Under the pieces are notes generated by a model. The model saw only the letters and a program-made list of their open reading frames with translations, ran no database searches and was not told the origin of the DNA. A DNA stretch of 64,000 bases from Raillietiella orientalis (Eukaryota). The stretch covers positions 5,704,001 to 5,768,000 of the forward strand of contig JAYWIR010000004.1 in assembly GCA_036172245.1 (NCBI GenBank). The letters run 5' to 3'. The first letter of the stretch is position 1. Each line of letters starts with the position of its first letter. Shown here piece by piece: positions 1-45,547 of the stretch. Made by a program: the position numbers and the translations under genes.

Positions 1-3000
1 ACTCCATCCGATGAAGATGGATATCGCCGGTATCAGCTTACGGGTTTTCCATCTGCTTTCTTCGGGCAGTGAAGGTGCCGCTGCGTCCGAAGGGAAAGGC
101 GACTCTCCCGTTGGGATCCCGCTATCTCAGGGACTCGACTGTGGTCGGGATTCCCTCAAGGAAAGGACATGCTCTTCACGGGACCGATGCCGTTGTCCCC
201 ACCCTTGTGTGGCCGCTGCTCCCGCCCTCGTGTTCGGAAACTTGCTCTGCGCCTCCCGGTCAAGTTTCCCTTGTGGAAACTGAGCGGCGAGATCATTCCT
301 GAGAAACCCAAGGATACCCTTCCTCTCTTTCCTCTTCAATTTCCGATCTCTTTTTCCGAGCAGAAGGAAGACGAGTTGTCCCAACGGAGACCGCAACCGC
401 CTCCTCCTAAGCCTCCCAATCCCCCTTCCCGACCCCCTCTCTATAAAGGAGGGGAAGAAAAGAAGCCTTTGTAGTAGGATGCTGTATGGTATTCCCGCTC
501 CCAAGTGCGCCAAATGGGTCACTTGCAGCAACTTCCCATTCTTTTCGCGGCCGGGAAGAGGTTGTGAGCCGCCGCCACCTGTCCAACCGCAGCCTCCCTT
601 CGCGTCTGCAGCGCCTCCGCTTCCACATCTTGCAGCTATGCCGTATGGTGATATACGCATTTTAGGATTCAGCTTCCTGCGTACAAACAGAAGGAGAGAA
701 GGAGGAGGAGGAGGAAAAGAGGAAGAAGGAAGGAGGAGGAAGGGCGGAGGAAGAGAGGAATTTAGTCATCACTCCCCGATAGGATCGAGGATCCCATTCT
801 CTAGAAGACGATGCAGAGCATCCAGCTCATCGCACCCGCAGTGTGACCCCATTCTCCTACTTTGTCCCCTCCCCTAACGCGAACAGCGTGGATCCTGGAG
901 ATCCGCCCAGCTTCTCGCGCGCCGAATTCCCATCTGCTCCACTGGCAGGAGTCCCAGCCTCCCTCATTCAGTGATGGTGAAAAGGAGAGGGGACTGGGTC
1001 TCCTCTGGGAGAGGTTTGGCGTCCGTTCCTGCAGCAGATGGGGGCGTGCCACTCCCCCAGAGCGACTCCGTTTTCGACTTCTTTCCTGACCTTGAGGGTC
1101 AAATCCACTAGAGTCAGAGGCGGAAGCGGACAAGGAGCTGCAGCCAGGGCTCCATGTAAAGCGGAAGTGGAGTGCGCCGCCACCCCTTGGAGCTTCCACC
1201 TCTCCCCTCTCCTTCCCCGCATCCGAAAGAGCAGCCAAGGGACACTGCGTTGAATCTCGCGTCGCTCCGGGCGTGTTGAGTGGGGTGCAGCGGGACGATC
1301 CGCTTTGATGGAAGGTCTCCTGAGGCCCCACGTCATCCCTCCTCGGCGGACCGGATTGCGGGCAAGAGACGTTCACCCGGAACACCGTGTGGAGCAGAAG
1401 CATGCACCATGGGGAGCAGGAATTCAGAACCTAGGATGCGGTGTCCTGCTGCCGCGCGCGAGGAGCGACCTCCTCCCTCTTCACAGTCCGCGGTCTCTGC
1501 TTTCTCTCTTCCACCCACCCTTGATCTCAGTAGGAGGAGGGCAGGAGCGAGTGGCCCTCCGCTGACCTGGAAGAGGGAGAGGAGGAGTGGAAAACGAGGA
1601 GGGGATGAGCGCTCGCGGGAACGTTCGGGAAGCCAGAGGAAACGAATTCCTCCCCCCTCCCTTCCGCCCCATCCGTCAGACGGGAAGGAAGCAATTAGAG
1701 AGGTTAATCAGGCATCCAGGATGGGAATCTCCCTGCATCCGGGCTCCGGACCTGGGGAGCACAGGAACTCGCATGCCCCCAGGCGGCGGCTACGACGCGA
1801 GGAGCAGGGGGTCTCCGCTGCGCGCTTCCAAATGCTCCCCAAGGAAGGGAAGATCTGTGCTAGCGGCGGGGTCTCTGGGTGGGGAGCGGGCACGTGCGCG
1901 CCGCTCCTTGGAAGGAGGGGGGTAGGAGGAGGAGGGAAACGAAAGGGCCATTTCCACCCTCCCTCCTTCGGGAGCTGCAAGCGGGTAAGAGCCGCCGCAG
2001 GCCGGATCTCCCTGCTCTCCTCCCCTCCCCCGTTCTCCGGTCCGTCCGTCTCGTCCCGCTCCCTCCCCCTCCCTCCTTTTCGATTTTCGTCGAGCGATGG
2101 GGCCGATCCTGGCATCGTCCCGCCACGCGCGGCGACGTCCGCCCCTTCCGCCCTACGTCCGCGCCTCTCTCCACACAGCTCCAGGGGGAACCACGAGGAG
2201 AAGGGAAGAGGGAGTATGAGGGTGGGTAGGGTGTGGGGAACTTCGCGAGCCAGTCCCTCTCTCTTCCCTTGGGGATTTCCTGAAGGTTTCCGGGAACGCT
2301 TCTTGGACGTGGAGAGAGAGCGCGGGGATCTCCACCGGGACGGATCAGGAGTCGGAAAGGAGGGATTCGAGGCTCGTCCTGATGCAGACCCCTTGGGGAA
2401 CGAGAGCGGGGTCTCGAGGACCGGGAAAGGGAGAGAGGAGAGGACGAGCTGGATGACTGGGATTCTCGCAGAACGGCAAGACCGAGGTCCTGAGGCAGGA
2501 AAAGGGGAACGCGCAGAGACGTAGAGTAGGGCAGAACAGGACGCCAGGGGGATGCCGACACAGTCACCCAGAGTCTCCTAGGAACGGAGCTCTCCCTCAA
2601 AGAAGGAGCGGGTCCACCCTCCTCCGCTCACCATTGGAGGCGGGACGGTGCCGGAGGAGAGAGCCTCTTCCACCTCTGTGGTTCCCGCGGATCCCTGCAT
2701 CCGGACTGCGGAGGGAGCAAGAAGGAGTGAGAAGGAGGAGAAGGAGGAGAAGGATCTTGTTTCTCCTCCTCAGTCCCCAGGAAGCTTCTTTCATCTCTCG
2801 GCTTACAACCGGTCGTTTCCCGAGCTTCCTATGCGCGGCAGTTCCTTCCTGAACCGAGCCCCTTTCCTTCCCTTCTCTCCGGTAGCCTGCGTGCAGAGGT
2901 CGCTTGCCCGCACTGCTCCAAAGGCAGGATCGGAGGCGGTTCCTCTCCGTGTCCTCTACCGCCTCTAGGAAGGGCTTTCCTTCCCCGATATTCCTCGGAG

Positions 3001-6000
3001 AGTGCCTCACTTCGGCCGCGCCCTTGTCCCGTCGTTGTCAAAGCGCTTCGAGGTAGAGCCTCCGTCGAACGCATGCCAGCACTCCCTGAGCCCCAGGCCG
3101 GATGCGCCCTGGCCTTTCGCTCTGTCCAAAGTCCTCACTGCCACCAGTCTGCAGCCGGGAAGCTCTCGTCAGGGGCACCAGAAGGGGAAAGGGGTTGACA
3201 GGAGAAAGGGCAGGGATGGGTGGGAGCGACGAAAAGTGGGGTGCCCGAGAACCACCGGATGGACAGCGCCGACGCTTCCTCGTCCCTGGCGGAGGAAACC
3301 TGAAGCCTCTCTTTCTCGCCCGTGGGGCGCAGAGGCAGCTCCTTCATCACCTCCCAGCTATGCAGATGACGCAGAACCCTGAACAAGGAAAGTCGAGAAG
3401 AATGCAAGGTTGCTGCTGCTGCTGCCTTTACTCCTCGTGGAAGAATCTCTTTCTCCGTCTGGAAGTTAAGGAATCCAGCGTTCAGGGAGCGCCGGCGCTT
3501 TGAGCATGCCTGGACAAGAGGCGTGGCCAAGGGGCGGAGTGCTCCCTGATTCTGCTCAGCGTGCTGAGGGAGGGGCCAAGGAGAGGGAAGAAGGTCACAT
3601 TCACTAGGAGTCCGGTGACCGGCTATAGGAGAAAAGGGGCGATACCAGGGAGGAGAGGCCTTTCTGGAGACACCAAGGACATGAAAGGGAACTATCACCG
3701 AGATCTTCCTTCAGCTACGATAAGTTCCTTCCGTCTAGAGGGAATGGTGGGGTTCGAACCCGTTGCAGGAGTAATGGAAAGTGCTGAAACCAAGAGGAGC
3801 TCAGGAGGGCAGTTTCCTACGAAAAAGCATGCTCGCCCTGGACCGCCTCGGTCCGTCGTTTCTTTTTGCTTTTCCGGATACGGAAAAGATAGACACGCGC
3901 CACGTCAAGGACCACGAGAGATGGATAGGACGCTCGTCACTGGAGTGAAGGGTGGGCAGATAATAGGCAGGTGTGCTCTTCCAGAACCGATCTTACGAGA
4001 TACTTCCATCTTCCTGAAGGTGGCATCCCTCTGACGTAGTGTGTCGCTGCCCCGAATGGCTCGAGGTTTCGTGCGCATCTGATCTTTCCGAGAGATAATC
4101 TCCAAGATGGATCTCTCAAGACGCTGAGGAAAAGAGATTCCGCTGTCCTGGCTCTTCTGCCTTGGCCTCATGAGGAGCACCAAAAACCATGTGGAAATTT
4201 CCGCATCACCAGCTTAATGTAGAATTTGAACTGTCTGCTGAGGTTGCCATGCAGAACACCGAGGCATCGCTCCTCCCGTCGCCCTCAATTTAGCCGTTTC
4301 CTTGCTGACAGTGGGATTCTGTCGACTCTCAGCACCAACGTCAACCGGACATGAGCGAAAAGTTCCGCTTCTCTGTCTTTTAGGTTTCTTTGGTCGAACC
4401 CGTCCTTTCACGAAATTTCTAACACTTCAAGACCAACCAAATTCCTCCTCCAATGAGGAATGATTATGCAGACAGTAATAGGTTCGAGAAAACCTCGTAT
4501 GAGATCATCTCCTGACCCGTTCTTACAAAACGGCACTCTCCAGACTTTTTCGTCTCTTAGGAAGCCAAATGACCCATTCCTTCTTCTAGAGGAGAAGTCC
4601 AAGGCTCTGGAGCTGCTTCAGGCACTCCAGGAATGTTTTTCCGTTCCTGTCTGGCTTTTTGTGTGGTTCATCTTCGAACTGATAGCTAGAATTCGGCGAG
4701 TAGGGTTAACAGATTCTTCTGCCGCCTTCTAGAGGCAGTTGCAGTGGGAGCTGTGACTTCTCATCATCGCAACCTTAAGCACAAACTGCATTAATCCGCA
4801 CTTCTTTGATATACACCAGTTCAATTTTGCTTCTTGGCATTTTCAGGAAGATGAAGAAGATAAAAAAGAAAATTCATGAGTTTCATCTCTACTGGCTCCT
4901 CACCACAGGGATTTCGATCCCTTTTTTCTTCACTCTTCACCCAGGTCTTGTCCTTCTCGACTGAGAAGACAGAAGAGTTCAGCAAGACGCTTCCTCAGAA
5001 CTCTATTCGTCTGTCTACAGCTTCCGGAACCGATCAACTCGAATGATCCCAGGTGACGACATTCCCGGACCTGTTCCGCCGCGATCAACACATCCCTCAG
5101 AGAGATCCATGGCGGAGCCTTTACTTGCAGAAAGCTCCTCTTTTCCTCCACGATCTTTTCCTCCAGGACGTTTTCCTTTCCGAGGATTCTTAAGGGACGA
5201 ATCCCTCAATTCATTAAGAAAACGTGCTGATCGTCCAATTAGGTTGCAGGCAGTGATGCTTGCGGATAGATGCGAGAAATCTCCCTACAGCACGATCTAT
5301 TTAATCCCCTCAGAAAATTGCCCTGGTGCCTTCGCCTTGCAGCAGCGCCAACGCCATGTTCTCTTCTTTGCCTGTTTCCTCTCCTTTGGCGCGAAACACG
5401 AAGGATAGGGGTCTCTTTTTCCCGGGGCAGCGCATTGTGGAGAGCGAGCACTGGAACCGTGGAAACACGACATATCAGATGCTTGATCCTGAGAGAAGAC
5501 GTCTGAGTTGTGCATTACAGCGGAGAGCGTCCTGGAGGCAGATTGTCCAGAAACTTGACGTAACGGCTCCATTCTCTCCATCATGAGGGTGAGAGCAGTG
5601 AAGTGCAAGTTCGGAAGCTCTTTGAGTAGGTCCGCGTGTGCCATCGTGACGGCTCACGCCACGGAAACTCACGACCTGCCATGTGTGCTCGTGCCAACTT
5701 GTGCTAGAACACATTTCCCGATTAGTAGTCCATGAAGTTTCAGATGAGCTGGGAGAATGTATAGAAAATCGGTTCCTAACCCCCTATTGGCTCTGAAGTC
5801 TTTCTCCTTGTGGCAAACCTATGCGTGACATCCAGAGCTCACCTTAGCACTCCCAGCACAGACATCTTCTGACACCGGACTCATACGGTGAGGATCTCAT
5901 TTCAGCGTTTCCGATGCAGCCCTTTGGGGACTCTCATTGAAGCATCGTAGCAACCGAAGCACAGCGAACTCTTCAAGCCTCCAAGTCCGCGAACGACGAG

Positions 6001-15920: not shown

Positions 15921-16400
15921 TTAGTGGATGCCTCGCCCAAGAAGGCTGTGTGGCATCATAAAGGCCAGGAGGGTGGAACTCTTTGCCAATGGGAGCCGGT
16001 CAGACCGCAGCGGGGTGGACCGAAAGTCGGCACTAGATGCGAAGAGGTCTAGGTCGCTTCTGCTTCCCTTGAAAGCAAGAGACCGCAGCCCTTGGATACA
16101 GTTCTTCGAAGAACGGAAACTCTGCCTGCTTGGGAGCACCGCTGCCGTCCCTGCCCGGAACTGAACCCCTGTTCTTGAGCTTCCGACTGCTCTCCTCACC
16201 TCTGCCCTCATTCTTTGAAAAACATCGCAGAGGTCAAAAAAATGCCCCGAAGGGGGAATTCGGTTCTTCGGTTCCTCCACCTCTGTGTGACCAAGCATCA
16301 GCAATGGTCTCATCGGGGATGTGTGGTGCCTCCCTCCCCCTGTGCGTTTGATCCTGCTCCTCTACCTCCAAAGCATAGCCTGGGAGAGAGTCACGAGCGC
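15921..16400 (-). mobile_element. decayed non-LTR retrotransposon RT fragment
   Basis: ORF 15921..16313 contains, in RT order, LLMLGHTEVEEPKNR..GHFFDLCDVF (cf. L..II..AR.....WLDL.NAF), LRSLAFKGSRSDLDLFASS (cf. LAFADDL.L.A) and LPLAKSSTL (cf. L.FN..KC..L). The catalytic DD is lost. Confidence 0.4.
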
Positions 16401-18164
16401 GCGGTCTGAGGAGGAAACTGCGTTCAGAAGGGACCGGGAAGATGGGTCAGCCGGCGCACCCTCGTCCGACCGGAAACGAGGGGCGCCTTCCTTCCACTTT
16501 GCGTCACTCTTGGAAACCTCGCAGAGGTCACCTTCGGAAACACCGGAAACGCTCGTTCCTTCCCAGCCGGGGGCACTCGGAGTTCCTTTCCAGCGAGAGG
16601 AAATTCCGGGTTTGGGTCTACTCTTCTCGGAGGGGACTTGCCTGGAGGGTGGCGTCCCATCGGAGGTTTCCTTTCCGGAAGCGCTCTGTGGACCCGTGGA
16701 TCCTCCAGGTGCGCAGGCGCGGGTGGCCTTTCAGGAATGGAGGACGCGATGAAGGGGCGAGTTGTTGGTGGGCCACGGACGAGGAGGGGAAGGGGAAGAG
16801 GAGGATGGAAGGAAAGGGGTGAGCTCTTGCATCTCTTCCTCCTCCTCCTCCTCGGAAGTCCTTCCTCCCTCTCTCCTGAAGAGCGCCGGAAATCAAGGGG
16901 TGTCTAGACCGAGGGTCATGGATACTAGAGATGCACCTCAAGCTGGAAGGACCTCCTGAACTAGCTACTCCAAACCGCCCGCTTCCTGTCTTCGCGGTCT
17001 CCTTTCCGGGAGAGAGGGAGATGGAGCACAGGACGAGGGACGACGACGGCAGCGCCCCCTCCTGTCACCCAAGAGGGTCTTCCCGAAGGCATCTCCTTGC
17101 CCTCTGCTCTTCTACTTTCTGTTCCTGCCGGGATAGGATCCGAGTTCTCCTAAAGATTCTGCGAAAAGGGAGGAGGGAAAAAGGGGGGAATGTGGAATAA
17201 GATGAAATGGCGGAGAGGGGGGGGGGAGGCAGGACGCAAGAAGGAGGCTGCAGCCTCCGCACTGCTGTGGCCGAGTCACGCGATCCCTCCGGTTTACGAT
17301 GTGCCTTCCGTGAGCTCGCAGTCGGGACACCGGAAACGCTAAGTGGATTGGGGGTCCCGGACTCCAGGCGGGACTCCTCTTCCTCGTCCTGGGGAGCTCC
17401 GACTCCTGGACGGATCGTAAATTTGGGATTGCCTTCTGTAGGAAGTACCCGGATCGGAAGGAGAGAGGGAAGCTGGAAAATCTCCTCTCGCGTTCCCTCC
17501 TAATTAGGTCTCGAGCTCGTAAACCTTTTACGACCCACCCGGTTCCCGCTCCCCCTGCCGCGCCTCGTGACGTCATTCGGCGCTTTACGGCCTCCTCTCC
17601 TGGGCGACTATTCTCGGAAGAGGGACGAGGAGGAGGAAGCGTGGGTCCCTTCATGAGGAAGGGAGGTCCTTTTCGTTCCTCCCATTCTCCTCCCCATTTC
17701 CTCCACCAGTCCTCTCCCCGAGCTTCCGTGCTCGAGCAAGAGGGGGAGAGAAGCTGCCGATGAAGAGCCGGGAAGGTAGGGAAGAGGCATCCTTGTGGAC
17801 GGGATCTAGCCAGAAACTACCAGGAGCGAAAGGGAGACCGGTCTCGGAAGTGCACTCTCGACCGTGGCTCTCGGAAAACAATCAAAGGGGTAGAAACGCC
17901 TGGGGCAATCCTCCGACCCTCCGAAGCCGTGGCACTCAGAGGTTATGCGGCGGTGACAGCGGAGGATCACCAGTGGGACATGGATGGGTGCTCGTCCTGC
18001 CACTCCAACTCAAGGGCAGGGGAGCAGCTGGGACATGAGAACAGGGCATCCGAGAAGCACATGCGCAGAAGGCCGACGAGGCAACGTCCTTCCTGGGGCC
18101 GCGGTCGTTATCTTACCACCTCTTCCTGCTCCTCAGTGGTGTTGAGAGTAATTCGTTTACTTAT

Positions 18165-18352
18165 CCCCTCCTCTCCTCCTTTACTCCTTCCCTTCTTCCT
18201 CCTTCTCCTCGATGCCTTCCTCCGTCCATAGGATGTGTTTTTCTAGGCAATCTTCTTCCTCTCCTATTCCTTTCTGTCCAGGTGTGGGGGAAAAAGAAGG
18301 GAGGGAGGAAGGGGGAGAAAGAGGAGGAAAAGAAGAAAAAGGGAGGAGGAAG
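18165..18352. repeat. polypyrimidine then polypurine low-complexity tracts (representative of many in 1-3.5 kb and 16-20 kb)
   Basis: C/T-dominated runs at 18165-18275 followed by an almost pure A/G run at 18286-18352; similar GA runs at 686-760 and 2716-2755. Confidence 0.8.
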
Positions 18353-19899
18353 CACCTTTCTCCCGACACGCTCCTGCTGGAACGAGGCGAGAGATCATAC
18401 CGCCTGCTCTCGCACCGCGGATTGCGCGCACCGCTCGCGGCAGGCGAGCTCTCTGACATGCGGGGTCGAAACCCCCAGCGATGGGAGGGCGCATCGATCC
18501 TGGTGAGGAGACAGATCATCCGTCCTTCCGAGCTCGGAGGTGGTCTACTTGGACGGTATATCCCCCCTCACCCCTTCGGTCGGCTCAATCCCTTCGTCAC
18601 GCTTCCCATTTGCCCCTTCCCACCTTGTTGATGCCCCTTCTCCCTCCCTCCTTCCCTTTCTCATGCCGTGGAGACACTCGCGAGACACTTCGCCGCTGTT
18701 CCTTCGCTCTCCTTCCGTGCGGCGAAGCAAAGGGAACGACGGGAGAGAAGGAAGTGGAGTCACTCTTAGGAGAAAGCTGGAATTCTTTCATGAGATGCAG
18801 CGGACTCAAGGCCTTCTCCAGCGGAGAGACTGATACGTGTCACAAAAAAAAATCGGTGCAGAGGTGTTGCTGCTGGTCACGAAGACACCGGGAAGGTCGG
18901 CAGCTGGCTGAGATCTTCCCGTCTTTGTCGTCGACAGGACAGCCTTTTCTCATTCGTGGGAAGAAAAACAGGGCCTCTCTTCCCTTCTCATCTCCCAGGT
19001 TGAACTATCCTCATCTGTCCGGCGACGTCCCTCCCCCCTTCCACGACTCGATCGCCGACCTCGCGCTTGAGCTCCCTCTTGCGGTTCCGGCTCTCGGTGG
19101 CCTCGGAGATAGTCAGCTACCGTCATCATTGAGAAGGGAGCCTATCATACATTGCGGCAGCTGTGCATAGACCAACGCTTCCACCCATGCTAGCCGTCAT
19201 AAGCAGCAACTATCGACCGGAGACCGGCGGAGGGAGGATAGGAGAGAGCGCAGCACGCTTTCCTCTGATTGGAACTTGCGGGCTCTTCCAAGAGGATTTT
19301 CTCAGGGCATCGTCCTGGTCAGAGATCGCTTCTGTCTGGACGGTCCTGTAGCCTGCTCGAACGTCCAGGCGCTGAAGGAAGTCTCCGGGAGGAGGTGACC
19401 ACACCTGCCCTGGCTGCGCGCGCCACTGCGTCACCGGAAGAGAAGGGACGCTGCTGCGGTAGAGTCTCCAAGAGCGCAGCAAGCCGGCACGCCTCTCGAG
19501 GACGCGAAAAGGCAAGCAGTAGGGTCGAGAAAGCTACAAGAAAGGGTCAGTTTCCAGCTCCTCCAGAGGCCCGAGGCTCTCTGGCAGGAGGAGTCTGCAG
19601 GGAAAGGCGTACGGACGTTTCCGGCAGCGTGAAAGTCCCTCTCGACCGATGGTGACCTGCTGTATCCAGCCGCCGCGCGAGAATGGGGCCCGAGTGGTAG
19701 CCGAGGGAAAAAGAAAAACAAAGGCGGTGGTGCCCCTGGAACAAACACCTCGGTCGAAGCCCCTCCCCTCCTAGATTCCCTGACCCTCCTCCTTACTCCG
19801 TCACGCTGCCTCAGGGTCCCGGCCAGGTCCCAACAGCCACCTTCAAACGTGCGCGCCTACATGGTGGTACGAGGATGCTGTGCTCTTCTGAACTACAGC

Positions 19900-20420
19900 T
19901 CCTGTGATGTGTTGCCGCCGAGTAGATATCCTGAGCTCGCCACTGACTCCCCGCGTTCTCTTCGTACTTCTCCTGAGAGTTTCCCCGAGCCGTCCCCGGG
20001 AGCGAGAACTCTTGGCATTCCTTAAGAAACAGGGGGAAGGAACTCTCCCGAGGATTTTCGTCTCACATCTTGCTCTTTCCCGCCCGGCAAGCCATCTCCG
20101 GCAGCCGGCCTTGAGACGGCACGCACGACCCTGTGGCTTGAAGGCACGTTGTCTTCCGCGTTCGGCACCGTTTCTCGGGAGCACGGCTCGTGTAGGCAGC
20201 GCTGCGGGCTTGGTCCCGTGGTCCAGTCGCTTCCTTCCAGGCGAGGAGAGGAGAGCAGAAAGCTTCTAAAGCTTCTTCTGATACCCGAGCATCCGAAGGT
20301 CTGAGTTTGCTGGGTGCCTGCCGCAACGGCTCTGAGCAACTAGAAAGCACCCTTCCACGCGCGCTGCCAAGGTGCAGGTCAGAGTCTTCGTATCTGCAAA
20401 AGAGTCGGCTCGTTCCCTCC
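19900..20420 (-). mobile_element. possible decayed RLE-type non-LTR RT thumb region
   Basis: YEDSDLHLG (cf. Y.YLG), AFCSPLLAWKE (cf. I..S.L.PWQK) and SRGRLGETL (cf. GGLG..L) occur in order; weak. Confidence 0.3.
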
Positions 20421-36600: not shown

Positions 36601-39287
36601 AATACTTAATGACGACCTTGAAGGCAGGTGAACAAGTATTGCGACTGCTCCAGCTGAAAATACAAGCGAAAAGAAATAAAAAACGGAAAAAGTACTAGAA
36701 CATGGGTGAGTGCAACCCTGAACGATGCTAGTAGATTGCTTTTTTGTTTTCCTTAGTAGGCAGGACACGAAGCATATTTCTGAGATTAGCTTAGATTCGT
36801 GCTTCTTCTAAGTAAATCTGAAATTCGAGGCTTATTTGATACTTATGTTCTAGCGATGCTGAAAAGAAGTTTCATAAGATCAATTATGGTGATAAGACCA
36901 GAAAGCACAGCAGCTCAAATTCCGCAGCGAAACCGTGGTAGCTATGCCTAATCATGAAGACATGGTATTTCCATCCAAAGATGCCTTGAATGCTTTCATA
37001 ACTTGCTTGCACGATATGAAGTTTAAACAAGTCTATTCAAGTTTTCTCATTCCCTATTCCACACTCTAATACCTTCTAAAGACTCGTTCCGAGATCAGCT
37101 CTTTCTGTTATGGAATGAGAATAACTTGTTGCTTTCTTGTCTTTCTAGCTCTCTACTCCTGAGAATTCTCTGGAGCAACATCTTTAACGGGTGCAATCAT
37201 TTCCTTAACCAACAGAAAAGTGAATTTGGTAATCAAGCACGAACGATTGCAGATACAATCTCCAGAAATGCAAAAGAACAAAAAGATAACTGAATCACGT
37301 GAACATTCGAAATTCTGGGTAAACCCACGTCTGTGTAGAAGCCAAGACATCACCTTTCGAGATCTGGGCGACAAATTTCATGACAGGACTTTGATATTTC
37401 CGTAAAGCAATTTCCAAGAGCCGTGACACCACAGCTTCGTTGGAGGGATTTTGCAGGTGCTTTCCAAAGTCAGCGAGGGATCTTTCAGAAAGAGGAAAAC
37501 CTCAGCCTGCAGCAGATATGCAGACTGAAAACGCAGAGAGCAATAGGCAGGTTGAATCAATATGAGGAGGTTTCATAAGAGCAAATGATGTGCTGGAGCC
37601 TGTTACATTGACAAAAAGGATACTTTGGTAAGGAGTGGATGAAGCAGGTTCCATCGGCCACCTAAGCGCTGCTCCCTCTACCTGCCCAAGACAGATTTGC
37701 TCACGTTCAAATAACAGCCGCCGTCTGATTGATTTTCATACAGTCATCCTCGAAAAATCTCAAGTAATAAAAAAGTTTGGAAAGATTTATGGGGGTGAAC
37801 GCAAAAACGGATTAGCACGAATCCATGAATACCGGTCATGAAACGAAATCATACGCATTTCACCGTTTGCTTTATCGGTTTTGGATCTGGAGATCATTCC
37901 ATCTCGTTCCAGTAAAATTTGATGGCTCCTTACGCTTTGTGATGGAAGCCAATGATTAGATCGAGAGTAATGCAAGTCCTTCGTGATAAAACGGTATAAA
38001 CCCTATTGATTTTGAAGGAATCACAGATAGTTGAATCCAACATCAGATGTGCATGTAAAACAAAATGAGCTAAGAGTAATCATGCAATGCCTTCATAGGG
38101 AAAGTAGGGATGCACTTAATTAACTGAGAAAGTTGACTTTAGGCCAACATTAAATAATCGAAACTGCTGCCAAATGAAGGGAGCATCAATTGGCTAAGGA
38201 TTACAAGGAATTCGTGTTAGAAACCAAACTGAAATGACTAAAAACGTCAAATTTTATTTTCTTTTTTTGGTGGAGGTAGAGGAAATTTAAACAAATGCAC
38301 GCGGCTCAGAGGAAGAATTTCAGAAATTTTGATCTTTTATTGGCATCACTCATTCAGATATTTTTTAAACTGCGCCTGGGTGTCCCAAACAATACATTCT
38401 ACTTAAAACCGAAAATTTCGGTTGTCTGGAATTCAGAAATTCAAAATGAGCTAGGGAATCGAAACGTGATACCAAATAACAATTTTAACACAAACAAAAC
38501 GTATCAAGATTATCCTTCTCCATTCGTACCAACCATATGTTTTCATGGTCTGTGCAAAACGCAAGCACCTGTTATTCAGAAATAAATGTAACATTTGGAA
38601 AAACTGTCCCCAGCTTCTTTCTTACTGGGTTGACAATCTGTTTTCCAATCACATTAGCTTCCTCAATTAGATAAACTGAAATAACGCGATGGTCTGCAGA
38701 CCAAATAATTACGTAATTCCTCTTTCGTTCGGCAGACAAATCGTAAAGATGATCACTTAAGTATAAACATCCGTTCTCATTTTTCTTGACTACATTTGGG
38801 AAACGAATAACTATTCTGATCTTTTAGGAGAAAGGTTAACGGTTTCATCATTTTAAAGCACAAAGTGCCACAACCAGTTCCGTGTTTCCTGAATTTATAC
38901 ATATTTTACACCACTGCTTGAACTCCTACCTCTATACATGTTCAAAAAACAATCATCTCGTAACTACAATTCATTTGACCGCAAGATTTTCACTAAAGGT
39001 TATGATTCTAACGTGAATTTCGGCAGATTTTATCACCGAAATGATGCTATCTATCACTGCTTCAAGCTACAGAATGCTTGGCTTTTGCTTTCCCTAATTG
39101 TACTTTTGTAATGCTTCCGGTATTTGGAGCCCCTTGGTGCGTTTCCTTGGTATGCAATAAGAAAAAATAAAACTTTTTTAGAAACTATATGTACTGAAAT
39201 GGTACTCAATTACACTCAATTGGAACAGCAATAATGATTAAATATCTCTATGCACTTTGTGGTTATTGTCTCAGAAATAATCTGTTG

Positions 39288-40658
39288 CTAGCACAGTGTA
39301 GCAACCGCTCTAATAAGTTTCAGAATACAAAGCTGTGCTCCGAATTGCAACATCAATGCTCCAAATCCTTTATATAATCCTGCTTTCCCTTCTTCCAGTA
39401 CAATGGCGTCATAACAATCTACTAATCCCATGTATTGTGTAATAATTGGCACTACTTCTCGACCATTATCTAGATTATCAATGATAGTCCTTGTGCCTTG
39501 AAGATGCAATCTGCAATACACCAAAGAAAAAGATGAGTAAGTCTCAGAACTGCATACCTATTGATAATTGTCCGAAGAGGGTAAACAAGCACACTCGCTA
39601 TCATGTTGCCCCAAGATCTTGCCTGAAATCTATTTAGTAAGGAAGACATTTCTTGATTGCTCTGAAAAATGCCTTTGCTGAAAATTGCGATGACTCAAAT
39701 ACATCACCTGTGATGGCTTTTGATGTGAGTAATGATGCTGAAGTAGCACAATTATGTTGAAAACAACTACTTCTACCATAGATCGCACAACATAATGTAA
39801 TAAATGACCAGTTACAGTAGGTATAATTAGGGACCAAAATGGCAAAAGACGACTACTTTGAGAATGCGACCAATTCATTAATCGCAAAAATCCTTCCTGG
39901 AACACATCAAACATTGCTGGAGGCTCACTTGCTACAGAAGACTGTACTGTCTCCACCAAGCTTGCAGAATAAAATGGTGTGAGTACTGCAAATACTGTGC
40001 TGCAAATACAGTTCAAAAGATAAGATTACATAAGATTTTACCATTTGAGGAGCAAATGCTGCATCAGTTTTCGTCTTGAAAGGATACCATGAAGTTCTCT
40101 GAACAACGTAAAAAAAATTGCTGGTTTCTGCCAACTTACTTTGAACATGGAGTCACACGGCTCAGCAAGTCTTCCAGCCATAAAGCCAAGCTGTGTATAA
40201 CTAGACTGCTACTTAGTCCTTTGTAAAAGATGAAAAATCCCTGCCTGCGTTGCAAGTTGAACATGACTGGAAGCAATGTGCAAGGGAACAAATGATAAGA
40301 AGAGGCCATGTGATTTAATTGACATTGTCGGCTTAGTACTACAAATGGATGGCAGAGAATGTGTTCAGTACATAATTCTACAACATCTGCAGCCAAGGAC
40401 TCCAGCATTAGCTGCTTTTCTAGAAATTCACTAATAATTCGTTTCCGTCCCTCACTTCTTTCTACCTGGAAGCAATGGTGGGTGCTCTCCAATGAATGTT
40501 TCCCCATAATCTGTATGTAAGGAGGACCCTAGAAAACACTGTTTTTCTGGAAATCCAGGAATAGGTTTTTCGTTGTTCTTCATTCCTTTTTTTATCACCT
40601 GGAACTGAGGATGAGTGCTCTCTCGTCTTCTCCCTGTTATGAAACCCCAACTTGCCAT
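39288..40658 (-). CDS. SLC25A46: mitochondrial outer-membrane carrier-family protein SLC25A46 (Ugo1-like), 6 exons, ~382 aa
   Basis: Exons 40658-40466, 40419-40140, 40098-40042, 39999-39708, 39661-39558, 39510-39288 (1149 nt, frame consistent); GT-AG introns of 46, 41, 42, 46, 47 nt. Diagnostic SLC25A46 segments: [74 protein letters not shown]. Exon 1 and the start codon are less certain because the N-terminus is not conserved. Confidence 0.93.
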
Positions 40659-40703
40659 TGGATTCCTATCACATTATGCAACTCAGTTCTAATTAATATT
40701 CTG

Positions 40704-40741
40704 AAGAGGGGTCGCTTTCCTGTAGACACAGTTCCCCTCTT
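40704..40741. other. stem-loop in the GTPBP3-SLC25A46 spacer
   Basis: AAGAGGGG (40704-40711) is the reverse complement of CCCCTCTT (40734-40741); inner CTGT (40720-40723) pairs with ACAG (40728-40731). Confidence 0.5.
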
Positions 40742-40771
40742 AACTTTGAACTTCACATTTTAACATAATTT

Positions 40772-40777
40772 TTTATT
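40772..40777 (-). promoter_or_regulatory. candidate polyadenylation signal AATAAA overlapping the GTPBP3 Lys-stop codons
   Basis: Minus strand reads GGG AAA TAA AA at the end of GTPBP3; usage not demonstrated. Confidence 0.45.
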
Positions 40778-42460
40778 TCCCAATACAGAAGTCGCGAAAA
40801 ATCACATCTAGAATTTCTTCTGTAGTGATTTTTCCAGTAAGGGATCCTAATTCTCTAGCTGCACGACGCAACCACTCTGCTTCAATTCCAACATCCTTCA
40901 CAGATCCCTTGTGCACATCTCCGAAAGCATTTAAATAATGAAGACATTTAATTAGATGTTCCCGATGTCGCATTTGAGTTATATAAACATCTTCTTGACC
41001 ACTACAGCAACTGAAAACGAAGCATGAAAACACTGTCTTAATAACAATACATACATCTCTTCTATTTTGGTTACCATAGCATTCAGCAAATTAGGTACAC
41101 CCTCCCCAGTTAAAGAAGATACTGAACAATGCTGAATGCCTTTCAGCTTATCATGAAAACGTGGTATTCTGTCTTCAGGTATGAAGTCAATTTTATTTAC
41201 AACAAGCAAATGCTGTTTTTCTTGTGGCTGCAGCCCCACTGCACTCCATATAGCATTAAGACTGTCAGTTTGCAGCTGCTCCACATCTGTGACCAACAGA
41301 ACCATATCTGCAGCTGAAGCACAAAGTCTTGCTCTGCGAATGCCTTCTTCTTCCAATAGATCTTGAGGAAGCTGCTGTCCAGCAGTATCACACAATAACA
41401 CAGGATAACCACTAAGAGACAGTGTTCGCTCAATAACGTCTCGTGTAGTGCCTGCCACTGTACTTACTATGGCAGCTGGATGTTGACCTAAGAAGAACAT
41501 ACAGAACACTGAGCACACTAGAAAAAGTCTTACAAATAACGTTAAACAAACTACTCTTTCCCACATTGGGCTTGCCAACAATAGCAATAGAAACACCAGC
41601 TCTCAGGCGTTCTGCTCTCTGTCCATCCTGGAGACAGTGCTGAATGTCAGCAATAAGATGCTGAATATCTAAAAGGATGGCACTTTGGAGTTGTGGGTCT
41701 AACTGTTCCTCTTCATCAAAATCAATAAATGCTTCAAAATGTGACAGACTCTGCAACATGTTGATTATCTAAGCTAACTGTACCTTGATGATACGCTCTC
41801 TCCACTGATCATAATGAGCAGATATTTCGCCAGTCATTTGACGTATTGCTTGCTGACGTTGTCGCTCTGTCTGTGCATGAATCAGATCAGCCAATCCTTC
41901 AACCTGCAAGCACAATTTTGGTTATCTTAAAACAGATATGGACCTTACTTCCAGAAGATCCATCTTTCCTGAAAGAAATGCACGTTTAGTAAAATCTCCA
42001 GGTTCTGCCATCTTCAAATCAGGAATACTGCCAAGAACTTTCAACAATAACTTCACTACTGCAGGACTTCCATGAACATGGAACTCACATACATCCTCTC
42101 CTGTTGAACTTTTAGGTCCTAATAATAGCGTGTTAATCAGAAGACTAGCAAAAAATATACCTGGAAACCAAATAACCATCCCTCGATCTATTAATTGACC
42201 TGTTTGAGGGTCATACAAATAACGCACTAAACACTTTCTAGCTTCTGGAAGAGCATTTAGTTTGCTAATTTGTTTGAGTGCTATGCTGCTTGATGGTCCT
42301 GAGACTCTAATAATGGAAACTCCACAAACGCCCATTCCTGAAGAAAGGGTTCAAACTGTTTGGAAAAAGCGATCAAACCTGATGCAAGTGCATAAACTGT
42401 ACTAGAAAGACGCCAACCTATTTCTCTGTTAATAGTTCTGTGCACCAAACTAAACAGCAT
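40773..42460 (-). CDS. GTPBP3: mitochondrial tRNA modification GTPase GTPBP3 (MnmE/TrmE/MSS1 family), 7 exons, ~478 aa
   Basis: Exons 42460-42379, 42337-42161, 42118-41949, 41903-41784, 41750-41534, 41487-41055, 41010-40773 (1437 nt, frame consistent); GT-AG introns of 41, 42, 45, 33, 46, 44 nt. MnmE motifs: [47 protein letters not shown]1 [11 protein letters not shown]2 GTTRD, G3 DTAG, G4 NKID, C-terminal FCIGK. The short Arg-containing N-terminus resembles a mitochondrial presequence. Confidence 0.96.
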
Positions 42461-42462
42461 AA

Positions 42463-44877
42463 TTAGCAGGACAAAGAATGAACAAGAGTGGTAAATTGGG
42501 ACACACGCAAATCATTCTCTTGCATTCTTCTATTGATTTCACTGCACAAAAATATCAAATACTAATTTGGAGAGATCACAAAGTTTGTATTTTTAAGATG
42601 ACTAACCTCATGGGACAAAAGCAAATGATTTTGGTCACTAGCTGGCACTTCCAAACATAGTGTACTGCGAACAGCCTAGAAGATAAGCATTAATAGGACT
42701 TGAAAATTAATAATTTAAATAAGCTTACAAGCATAACCCAGCCTTTTTTCCCACAAGTCAGGCCAGAATTGCGAAAACCAGCTTCTGTGGCGAACACCCT
42801 CTAGAAAATAAAATCATGGAGTGATTTACCCAGGGTTTAGCTATCTTTTCAAAAATCATGCAACATGGATGTATAAATGGTGTGCATAATGTTTCTAACT
42901 TTTCACATACTTTCTAACTTGGCTGCCATTTGTTCAGCGTGACAACTACATATGCTACATGAATTAGAAAGTACTTATGCACCTACAAAATATTTACTCT
43001 AATGTGGTGTAACTGTTCCTGGATTACATCTATATTAATCTACTGAAAGCAACAGCGCATTTTATGCGAATTTTATGAAATTCACATGTAAACCACGATC
43101 CACAAAATTTAATGTCATTGTACATGTTTAAAATATATCCTAATATCATGATTCTTAAATATGGCACACAATTCTTGTTACTCCCAAATTTTCAAGGTTT
43201 CTAAATTTTAAAATATTTATCATAAAACAATACATTGTAATCATACATAAACAAATAATCCAACATCTGGAATGCTTGCAAAATGCTAAGTACTGAATGA
43301 TGCAAAATGCAACAGATTTGTATGCAGATATTTTTTCATGCCTACTTGTAGTAAGTAGTCCAACACCTTTAAGCTGAGGACTCTTTTTCAAATACTACGG
43401 GAATATGATCCATCATTACCTTTTACATCATCATAATGTTAACTTTACAGTGCATTCAAAATTTCTCTTCATCTCTATACAATTTCTTCTAATGCTAGAA
43501 TAGATGCTTTAAAGTAATTGCAATATTTAAGAAATGCAGTCAAAAAGCTAAAAATTGTAAATGCAAATCAAATTATTTTGATGAGCCTCTCTACAATACC
43601 ACGTACTTTTCCAAACAAAACTAAGAATTAGATACAATCCTCAGATAAGGGCAACATTCTTGTGTGTTGAAAGAAATGTGAAAATCTACTTATAAAATAA
43701 ATATTTAATTATAAATGCCTATAAAGTTTTTTGGGAACCATGAATTCGGATGATACAATAAGTTTATTTCCTATCTCACGATCACATCATATGAAATATG
43801 CTTACAAACACGAGTGGATTATCAAACAGTATCATACAGAAATGAATTAAAAGATTTACAAATAACTGTCAGGGCAAAGCATAAATGCAAATGAATAAAT
43901 TTTTAAAATCATTTATCTCAATATAAAACACAAGATGCAAAGACACTGTAGAATATTCATTTATATAATCACGAGTCACTATTTTCTTTCAACAAAATTT
44001 TAGTTGTGGAATGTTAGCAGTTTCCCAAGTTAGAAACGGATAAAAAAAAAAACAGAATTATTAGGGATGGGTTAACTAATTATGGATCAAAATGTTGCAT
44101 ACCAATTTTTCACCATCTTTTAAAGAAGCACACTTTACATGAAGAACAAACGGTTCAAACTTAATGGTGACCTGATTTGTTTTCCCAAATGTTTCCAGAG
44201 AATCAATCTACAGGGAATGAAGTCGAATACTGTCTTTAAATATGGACTCACCAATTCTTCTTCCGTAATAAAGGTGTGCTTCACAAATAATATTTTGCAA
44301 GTGTTTTTTGTTTTGGATTTTGGAAGGGTGCTTTTCTCCTGAAAAACACGTATGGGAACCATTATCAACTTTTCCATTTAAGAAAGCTGCTATATGTTTC
44401 TTTCTGGCGAAACAAAATACTAACGTAATCATTAATACCTTGAATATTAATTCAGATTTTTAGCCATATGAACCTATTTTATGCTATATACAATATTACA
44501 TAAGTTAATACGAAGGCAAACCTTCCTTAATTTAATTTAAATGCTGCCTATAAAAAAAACAAATTGCTCAAAAATGTTTATTACTTTAAGGCCTGCACCT
44601 ACATATCATTTCACTAAATAGGTCAGAACATTTACATATTAAGGCATCTATGAATTTAATTCAATTTTATGACATTTATTTTGACACAAAAAATTACCCC
44701 AATTGATGAATGCGTGTATAAAACTATTCGACCAGAACAGGAGCTTGTTGTAACATATGAGTCCAAAGAATTAATATAAAGTATCAAATTTTCGATCTTT
44801 TCGTCAATAGAGCCTTTTTTGCTCAAATCTTTTCCACTTAGGATTTTTTTTTTCAGTGCTTCGAAATCGGTGCTCAT
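42463..44877 (-). CDS. TYW3: tRNA wybutosine-synthesizing protein 3 (tRNA-yW methyltransferase), 6 exons, ~203 aa
   Basis: Hand-spliced exons 44877-44698, 44338-44252, 44207-44103, 42800-42729, 42675-42607, 42561-42463; all GT-AG, all phase 0; introns 359, 44, 1302, 53, 45 nt. TYW3 family motifs occur in order: DLSKKGSIDE, YVTTSSCSGRI, IKFEPFVLHVKC, AGFRNSGLT, AVRSTLCLEVP, YLIFLCSEINRRMQEN. Ends at TAA 42465-42463. Confidence 0.93.
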
Positions 44878-45547
44878 GTCTCACTACACTCCGTCAAACT
44901 ACCAACTCATCGATAAAGTTTCTCCGATTTTGCATTAAGCTAATAAATAGCTTAGCTTGCTAAATAAGGATTCCATCGGGCAGTAAACATGAAAATTTAT
45001 TAATAACCATTTACATAATTTTAATGCTCACGAAATGACTTTTTGAGAAGAGTTCTCCCACCGCTAGGAGCAATCCCACGTCAAAGTTGCATGCAAGAAG
45101 CATTTGTACACCAGTAGGACTAATATATCAACTTGTGATTGGCACGAAAATAATGCTGAAAAATGTCATGCTTTTGGAGTTTAAAGCTGTTTCACACAAG
45201 CATTCTCCACCATCAAGTATTTACTTGAGTATTTTTTTTTTCTATGTACGATATTCCTTCATAGCATCCGCTTGTTACAGCAGTTCCATACGAGATAAAC
45301 ATTCCCATTTATCTCCTCTTGAAGGCAACGTGGACTGCATCAAAATCAGATTCATTTTCATTTAGTCAGTCAATAAACAAGACAAACTACAAGTAATTCT
45401 GTAATCAGTGAAGCACAAGTTCCTTTCTGGTTCATTCGTTAAGTGAAATTAATACCATGGAGACTGGAACGATCACAAGATAGAAATAAAGCCTCAACAA
45501 GAGAAACCAACGGGCACAAAAATGATAAAGTGAATCCCTGAGAACAC

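Follow-up and report, generated by a model that had tools for sequence, protein, structure and literature searches.

How are two complete enzyme genes of an animal expressed when their coding sequences lie almost end to end? The question is raised by a 64,000-nucleotide (nt) stretch of Raillietiella orientalis DNA (contig JAYWIR010000004.1, positions 5,704,001 to 5,768,000; hereafter the window, whose own numbering is used throughout), in which a TYW3-like gene and a GTPBP3/MnmE-like gene, two predicted transfer RNA (tRNA) modification enzymes, follow each other on the minus strand. Read directly, their junction (42458..42465, minus strand) consists of the TYW3 stop TAA (42465-42463), the dinucleotide TT (42462-42461), and the GTPBP3 start ATG (42460-42458), leaving a stop-to-start spacer of 2 nt between two coding sequences on one strand, with the GTPBP3 frame at -1 relative to that of TYW3. 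Upstream of this ATG the GTPBP3 frame is closed by an in-frame TGA (42514-42512), and the 51 nt from 42511 to 42461 contain neither an ATG nor an AG. A first-pass annotation had pointed out both the 2-nt distance and the lack of any ATG or AG between the TGA and 42460; the latter was verified by reading, and for the former both gene ends are backed by homologues and the gene identities by Pfam. Two intact genes in this geometry, no poly(A) signal close by, and a single CpG-retaining zone are what the locus presents. TYW3 and GTPBP3 are probably copied into one RNA, and from the arrangement we infer co-transcription, a mature dicistronic messenger RNA (mRNA), and reinitiation. We thus tentatively, and at somewhat less than an even chance, read the locus as a candidate dicistronic (polycistronic) locus like those on record for arthropods, with one mRNA and low-level reinitiation.

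The TYW3-like gene (42463..44877, minus strand) is modeled with six exons and 203 codons on the basis of exon boundaries, Pfam, and homologues. Its exons (44877-44698, 44338-44252, 44207-44103, 42800-42729, 42675-42607, and 42561-42463) are separated by introns of 359, 44, 1302, 53, and 45 nt, and the last exon begins at 42561 directly after an AG acceptor. Pfam, which was run on single-exon translations and not on joined proteins, matched PF02676 to exon 1 (1.1e-16, 61.2 bits, cutoff 27) and to exon 3 (27.4 bits). All 20 of the 20 columns invariant across a 17-homologue alignment are kept in the model, including in the test of the Ser/Cys-rich TTSSCSGR block, and the archaeal Taw3 structure 2drv matches at 3.4e-8. 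The best full-length match is a louse protein with 46% identity, followed by odonates and spiders at about 43%. Of 30 homologues shorter than 400 amino acids that align at the locus, 12 reach the last exon, one of them as far as 42472; the spliced model aligns through residue 201 of 203, opposite residue 216 of 223 of an odonate protein, and the shortest homologues terminate just past the same C-terminal helix. By these comparisons the C-terminal end of the predicted protein is genuine, and the model is full length with its C-terminal helix. TYW3 methylates wybutosine at position 37 of cytosolic tRNA-Phe, and the predicted role of this gene product is that of the methyltransferase acting on the wybutosine intermediate of tRNA-Phe. 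A pyrimidine-rich acceptor-like site also ends at 42542, 20 nt into the last exon (42542-42561, minus strand); its use in cis would bring in a TGA right after exon 5, with loss of the conserved C-terminal helix. At the other end of the gene, the heptamer TATCGAT stands at 44915 on the minus strand, 38 nt 5' of the TYW3 ATG, and fits seven of the eight positions of the DNA replication-related element (DRE), a housekeeping-promoter motif of insects.

The GTPBP3/MnmE-like gene (40773..42460, minus strand), supported in the same three ways, has seven exons and 478 codons and stops at a TAA (40775-40773). Its exons lie at 42460-42379, 42337-42161, 42118-41949, 41903-41784, 41750-41534, 41487-41055, and 41010-40773, with introns of 41, 42, 45, 33, 46, and 44 nt; the exon 1 donor GT directly follows 42379, and all 11 introns of the two genes are GT-AG. 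Pfam matched TrmE_N (1.5e-28), MnmE_helical on three exon pieces, and MMR_HSR1 (2.4e-11), by which the three-part MnmE architecture (TrmE_N, helical, and inserted G domain) is present in the predicted protein. MnmE structures match the model at 1.4e-17 (9hip). The model carries GKPNVGKS at residue 242, DTAG at 289, and NKID at 353, which we take to be G1, G3, and G4, and it ends in CIGK, its last four residues. Homologues align at 45-47% identity from residue 19-21 to their own final residue, and the best named matches (turtle, bivalve, and tardigrade) reach 38-52% on one exon. An N-terminal MnmE motif lies within exon 1, 19 codons past the ATG, and on this evidence the predicted start is genuine. 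The conserved core is preceded by a basic extension of 19 residues, where animal homologues carry at least 35. GTPBP3/MnmE modifies wobble U34 of mitochondrial tRNAs.

Just 66 nt separate the sequence for the conserved TYW3 C-terminal helix from that for the conserved MnmE motif, and the two genes therefore cannot be parted by any small assembly error. Natural fusion of the two proteins was not seen either: MnmE domains occurred in 0 of 43 TYW3 matches, and PF02676 in 0 of the 120 MnmE matches listed.

Together with a SLC25A46-like gene whose ATG lies 114 nt past the GTPBP3 stop on the same strand, TYW3 and GTPBP3 form an island of 5.6 kilobases (kb) with gaps of 2 nt and 114 nt. In the stretch from 36.1 to 47.5 kb, Pfam matches were obtained for 9 of 101 open reading frame (ORF) pieces, seven from TYW3 and GTPBP3 and two from the SLC25A46-like gene, with none at 36.1-39.2 kb or 45-47.5 kb. 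Neither the 116 ORFs of at least 62 amino acids and below 53% GC at 28-36 kb and 48-64 kb nor the 59 larger ORFs (55 of these from 1-28 kb) gave a single match. Since no scanned ORF beyond the island matched Pfam, general compactness of the genome does not explain the tight packing, and the 2-nt spacing did not arise by chance packing. Because of the two short gaps and the lack of any other scanned ORF with a Pfam match, shared transcription would be the simplest reason for this packing.

The distribution of CpG dinucleotides points the same way. Over 39288-44700 the observed/expected CpG ratio is 0.40, with flanks at 0.78-0.90, and as the 1.3-kb intron is also at 0.40, the depletion is not a coding effect. 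A promoter-like zone that retains CpG (44701..45100, minus strand; 13 CpG, ratio 1.06) sits at the TYW3 5' end. The ratio is 0.41 around the GTPBP3 ATG, where it stays within 0.27-0.41 over 42001-42900, and 0.47 around the SLC25A46 ATG. Germline methylation of transcribed gene bodies gives such CpG depletion in animals with mosaic methylation, and the depletion of the island, together with a TpG/CpA excess over 39288-44700, suggests germline gene-body methylation in this organism. The pattern would fit a single methylated transcription unit served by one unmethylated promoter and favours co-transcription of TYW3 and GTPBP3; it is consistent with a promoter upstream of TYW3, none separate for GTPBP3, and perhaps one for SLC25A46.

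Poly(A) signals were considered on the minus strand. The first AATAAA past the TYW3 stop is at 41197-41192, inside GTPBP3 exon 6, a position given by the first-pass annotation as within GTPBP3 coding sequence and verified here. Neither AATAAA nor ATTAAA occurs over 1265 nt past the TYW3 stop, which is not significant alone (about 1.3 expected). The second AATAAA (40772..40777) overlaps the GTPBP3 stop and is likely the 3'-end signal of GTPBP3-containing transcripts. We agree with the earlier deduction that a TYW3 mRNA with a normal 3' untranslated region (UTR) necessarily enters GTPBP3. The accompanying statement that the junction leaves no room for a GTPBP3 promoter was too strong, since a promoter can sit inside TYW3.

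On the dicistronic reading, a promoter at about 44.7-45.1 kb would drive a pre-mRNA through TYW3 into GTPBP3, possibly onward into SLC25A46. Splicing of the tiny introns would yield a mature TYW3 and GTPBP3 mRNA ending at the AATAAA that overlaps the GTPBP3 stop. TYW3 would be translated, with termination at its UAA; a small share of the 40S subunits would stay bound after termination and start again at the AUG that follows 2 nt later. The outcome would be GTPBP3, with a short putative mitochondrial presequence, in a low and constant proportion to TYW3. This model accounts for the spacer of 2 nt, the clustering of the genes, and the CpG distribution, and it requires an inefficient step without a visible helper element. 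The A at position -3 of the GTPBP3 ATG and the presence of arthropods among the best homologues of all three proteins count in its favour. Stop-start reinitiation on a dicistronic mRNA had been proposed on first inspection of the sequence, next to an overlapping transcript begun inside TYW3; the co-transcription half of the first proposal is strengthened by the CpG pattern, and for reinitiation itself the sole positive evidence is the 2-nt spacing.

Several other routes from a shared RNA to GTPBP3 were tried and rejected. Leaky scanning past TYW3 is ruled out, as TYW3 contains nine ATGs against a codon-shuffle mean of 10.3 and thus shows no depletion. Read-through of the TYW3 stop reaches a TAG after 14 further codons, in the wrong frame for GTPBP3. 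A -1 frameshift would lead into the GTPBP3 frame, yet the last TYW3 exon holds no X XXY YYZ heptamer. Skipping from TYW3 exon 5 to GTPBP3 exon 2 is out of frame, and an ATG donated by a leader through an acceptor in GTPBP3 exon 1 fails because no AG there ends a codon.

A number of observations weigh against the dicistronic reading. The CpG counts are small, at 4 to 13 per 300-400 nt, and the ratio of 0.92 (8 CpG) in the window 40750-41049, in the last GTPBP3 exon, makes internal promoters possible, at least for SLC25A46. RNA folding at the junction is not stronger than in shuffled sequences (z -0.24 genomic, z -0.56 spliced). The sole UGGGA, which we take to be the 18S-complementary pentamer of viral reinitiation signals, lies about 193 nt 5' of the TYW3 stop, not close to the junction. 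Six introns 3' of the TYW3 stop may expose a dicistronic mRNA to nonsense-mediated decay. The upstream ORF is long, at 203 codons, and reinitiation after long ORFs is described mainly for viruses and one retrotransposon, which need upstream elements (PMC10275272). At the fly lemming locus, translation of the downstream ORF from the dicistronic mRNA could not be detected, and monocistronic forms exist too (PMC3372440).

The alternative that survives best is a pair of overlapping independent transcripts, which we regard as possible, if on the unlikely side. Here a GTPBP3 core promoter within the last TYW3 exon or intron would direct transcription from a start in 42512-42461, giving a short leader; TYW3 mRNAs would end at a non-canonical poly(A) site in GTPBP3, and GTPBP3 would be translated by cap-dependent scanning, with no unusual translation required. 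The sequence around the start is compatible with this, as the stretch 42461..42512 (52 nt, minus strand) within the last TYW3 exon is free of ATGs, the nearest lying at 42525 and 42515. A clean leader is possible just from 42512 onward, and an ATG-free leader for GTPBP3 is attainable solely by a transcription start within 42512-42461. That interval holds one initiator-like hexamer, TCATTC (42481-42476), 19 nt 5' of the GTPBP3 ATG, whose presence at least once has a chance probability of about 0.12. Regulatory DNA could be housed in the 1302-nt TYW3 intron 3. Precedents also exist: according to FlyBase, monocistronic transcripts of the downstream gene usually arise from a downstream promoter (PMC4528330), and at the lemming locus a 5' end maps 107 nt upstream of ORF2 (PMC3372440). 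Against two independent transcripts stand the lack of any CpG-retaining zone at the GTPBP3 start (0.27-0.41 over 42001-42900, versus 1.06 at the TYW3 5' end) and the three-gene packing in a window where no other gene was detected, which they leave unexplained.

A spliced-leader operon seems to us quite improbable. Trans-splicing would then use an AG of the last TYW3 exon as well as the acceptor-like site ending at 40701, and TYW3 and GTPBP3 mRNAs would be mutually exclusive for each precursor molecule. The tightly spaced, same-strand housekeeping cluster, in which 14 of 16 introns measure 33-70 nt, resembles such operons. So does the GTPBP3-SLC25A46 junction, with its AATAAA at the stop, a pyrimidine-rich acceptor-like site about 70 nt on, and a 42-nt leader. 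The TYW3-GTPBP3 junction differs. Its nearest upstream AGs (G at 42542, 42530, 42527, 42519, and 42517) share the interval 42513..42544 (minus strand) with two upstream ATGs, of which that at 42525 is in the TYW3 frame, and that at 42515, with an A at -3, opens a 21-codon ORF overlapping the GTPBP3 ATG. Since no AG lies closer to the GTPBP3 ATG than that at 42517, a 5' end formed by splicing in cis or in trans would carry ATG 42515 in its leader whichever AG were used, and none qualifies as a suitable acceptor. In addition, TYW3 has no poly(A) signal before any such acceptor, a feature present at the GTPBP3-SLC25A46 junction only. No strong orphan acceptor was found before the GTPBP3 or SLC25A46 ATG, the candidates being no stronger than background, and no spliced-leader (SL) RNA or other Rfam family was found within the window. 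The best protein matches include arthropods, among which, to our knowledge, spliced leaders are known solely in copepods and amphipods. Operons whose genes are spaced by some 1 to 110 nt are known from tunicates, nematodes, and chaetognaths (PMC7986045; PMC12460157), which speaks for the model. Nematodes, chaetognaths, and ctenophores, however, lack gene-body methylation (PMC12460157), and the gene-body-type CpG depletion seen here argues against these groups.

A gene-model or assembly artefact (another GTPBP3 first exon, for which several AGs inside exon 1 might speak, another TYW3 last exon, or an indel at the junction, a possibility the first-pass annotation had itself raised) is very improbable, given that the TYW3 C-terminal helix and the MnmE N-terminal motif are encoded in place with 66 nt between them, that every AG in exon 1 is out of phase with the codon ends of the GTPBP3 frame, that both ORFs are intact with every tested motif kept, and that a small indel would be insufficient to part the genes. 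What probability remains after these four models we assign to mixtures of them.

The third gene of the island, the SLC25A46-like gene (39288..40658, minus strand), is supported by homologue names, tblastn, and an exon model with six exons and 374 codons. With manually set boundaries its exons are 40658-40599, 40528-40140, 40098-40042, 39999-39708, 39661-39558, and 39510-39288, its introns measure 70, 41, 42, 46, and 47 nt, and the gene is intact. By source name, its matches include a horseshoe-crab SLC25A46-like protein (53%) and a springtail protein (52%); the model is 43-46% identical to four of five homologues across about 300 residues, the remaining one reaching 38%, and two weak Mito_carr matches were obtained with its pieces. 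The CpG cluster at 40750-41049 sits 100-400 nt 5' of its ATG and may mark an internal SLC25A46 promoter. Past its stop (38258-39288, minus strand), about 950 nt lack AATAAA and ATTAAA, and the first AATAAA is at 38341; SLC25A46 may thus have a long 3' UTR, or the organism may use variant signals. Across the island, all 16 introns are GT-AG, and the two outside the 33-70 nt range (359 and 1302 nt) are both in TYW3. Best identities are 46% for TYW3, 46-47% for GTPBP3, and 46% for SLC25A46, with arthropods at the top for TYW3 and SLC25A46. The cluster as a whole combines tRNA-modification and mitochondrial housekeeping genes.

Elsewhere, the 64-kb window yielded no Rfam family, no tRNA, and no internal repeats, and its four low-complexity tandem-repeat rows all lie outside the gene island. 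Two blocks of 59-60% GC (1-4000 and 16000-20000) carry ORFs of 130-414 codons in several overlapping frames on both strands; without Pfam, Rfam, or within-window repeat matches, they look like non-coding GC-rich DNA. A metagenome scan with the TYW3 alignment found a GTPBP3/MnmE-like neighbour at 0 of 80 loci, which look archaeal (Taw3), because the matches are uninterrupted and some contigs are hundreds of kb long, and are silent on animals.

We consider it unlikely that termination-reinitiation on a spliced mRNA of both genes is the sole source of GTPBP3. If true, this would be a cellular case, in an animal, of ribosomes reinitiating efficiently past an ORF of 203 codons with no tethering element of the viral type; the cytosolic enzyme for position 37 of tRNA-Phe and the mitochondrial enzyme for wobble U34 would be made at a set ratio, and ribosomes continuing through GTPBP3 would shield the mRNA from nonsense-mediated decay. 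A functional coupling of cytosolic and mitochondrial tRNA modification is speculation. Should the two genes share one mRNA, the locus would offer a compact natural test of how eukaryotic ribosomes gain access to a second long ORF 2 nt downstream, and of whether the arrangement sets the ratio of two anticodon-loop enzymes in different compartments. Furthermore, automated gene prediction is likely to go wrong at such a junction, by joining the two genes, cutting one short, or missing the second altogether, which makes the exon coordinates reported here of use to annotators. In addition, the CpG pattern shows that sequence alone allows promoter positions to be guessed in this genome, an approach applicable to other tight gene pairs in the assembly.

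Among known systems, the closest are the dicistronic loci of flies. For Drosophila melanogaster, FlyBase counts 159 dicistronic pairs along with seven tricistronic and two tetracistronic sets, so that 2.5% of protein-coding genes are transcribed together with a neighbour; where polycistronic mRNAs are the only product, stop and start lie -34 to 319 nt apart, and downstream promoters often add monocistronic forms (PMC4528330). Like those loci, the present one has two full, unrelated or loosely related ORFs on one strand with a very short spacer. Fly dicistronic loci have a single upstream promoter and no spliced leader, express the downstream ORF by non-standard initiation or from a monocistronic transcript, and are enriched in small peptides; in contrast, TYW3 and GTPBP3 encode enzymes in long ORFs (203 and 478 codons) interrupted by many introns. 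The sloth1-sloth2 pair has a 5-nt spacer and uses leaky scanning (PMC9681215), which is impossible here with nine ATGs in TYW3. Spliced-leader operons of nematodes, tunicates, and chaetognaths share the same-strand housekeeping cluster, tiny introns, and short intergenic distances. However, their distances are measured from poly(A) site to acceptor and the upstream gene keeps its 3' UTR, whereas here 2 nt is the distance between coding sequences, with no clean-leader acceptor at GTPBP3 and, by Rfam, no SL RNA in the window. Viral termination-reinitiation (the termination upstream ribosome-binding site, or TURBS, of calicivirus and influenza B; UAAUG and AUGA overlaps) likewise has stop and start only a few nucleotides apart at the end of a long first ORF, and it is expected to yield the downstream protein at a constant, low level relative to the upstream one (PMC10275272; PMC3035654). 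Unlike the present junction, where none was found and a cellular spliced mRNA is predicted, these viral signals need a structured, 18S-complementary element nearby. In line with the first impression that the pairing is undescribed, no published report of it was found in a search that did not extend to the FlyBase pair list (File S1, PMC4528330). The type of locus is thus not new, and the TYW3-GTPBP3 pairing with its 2-nt spacer is a candidate addition to the fly-type class.

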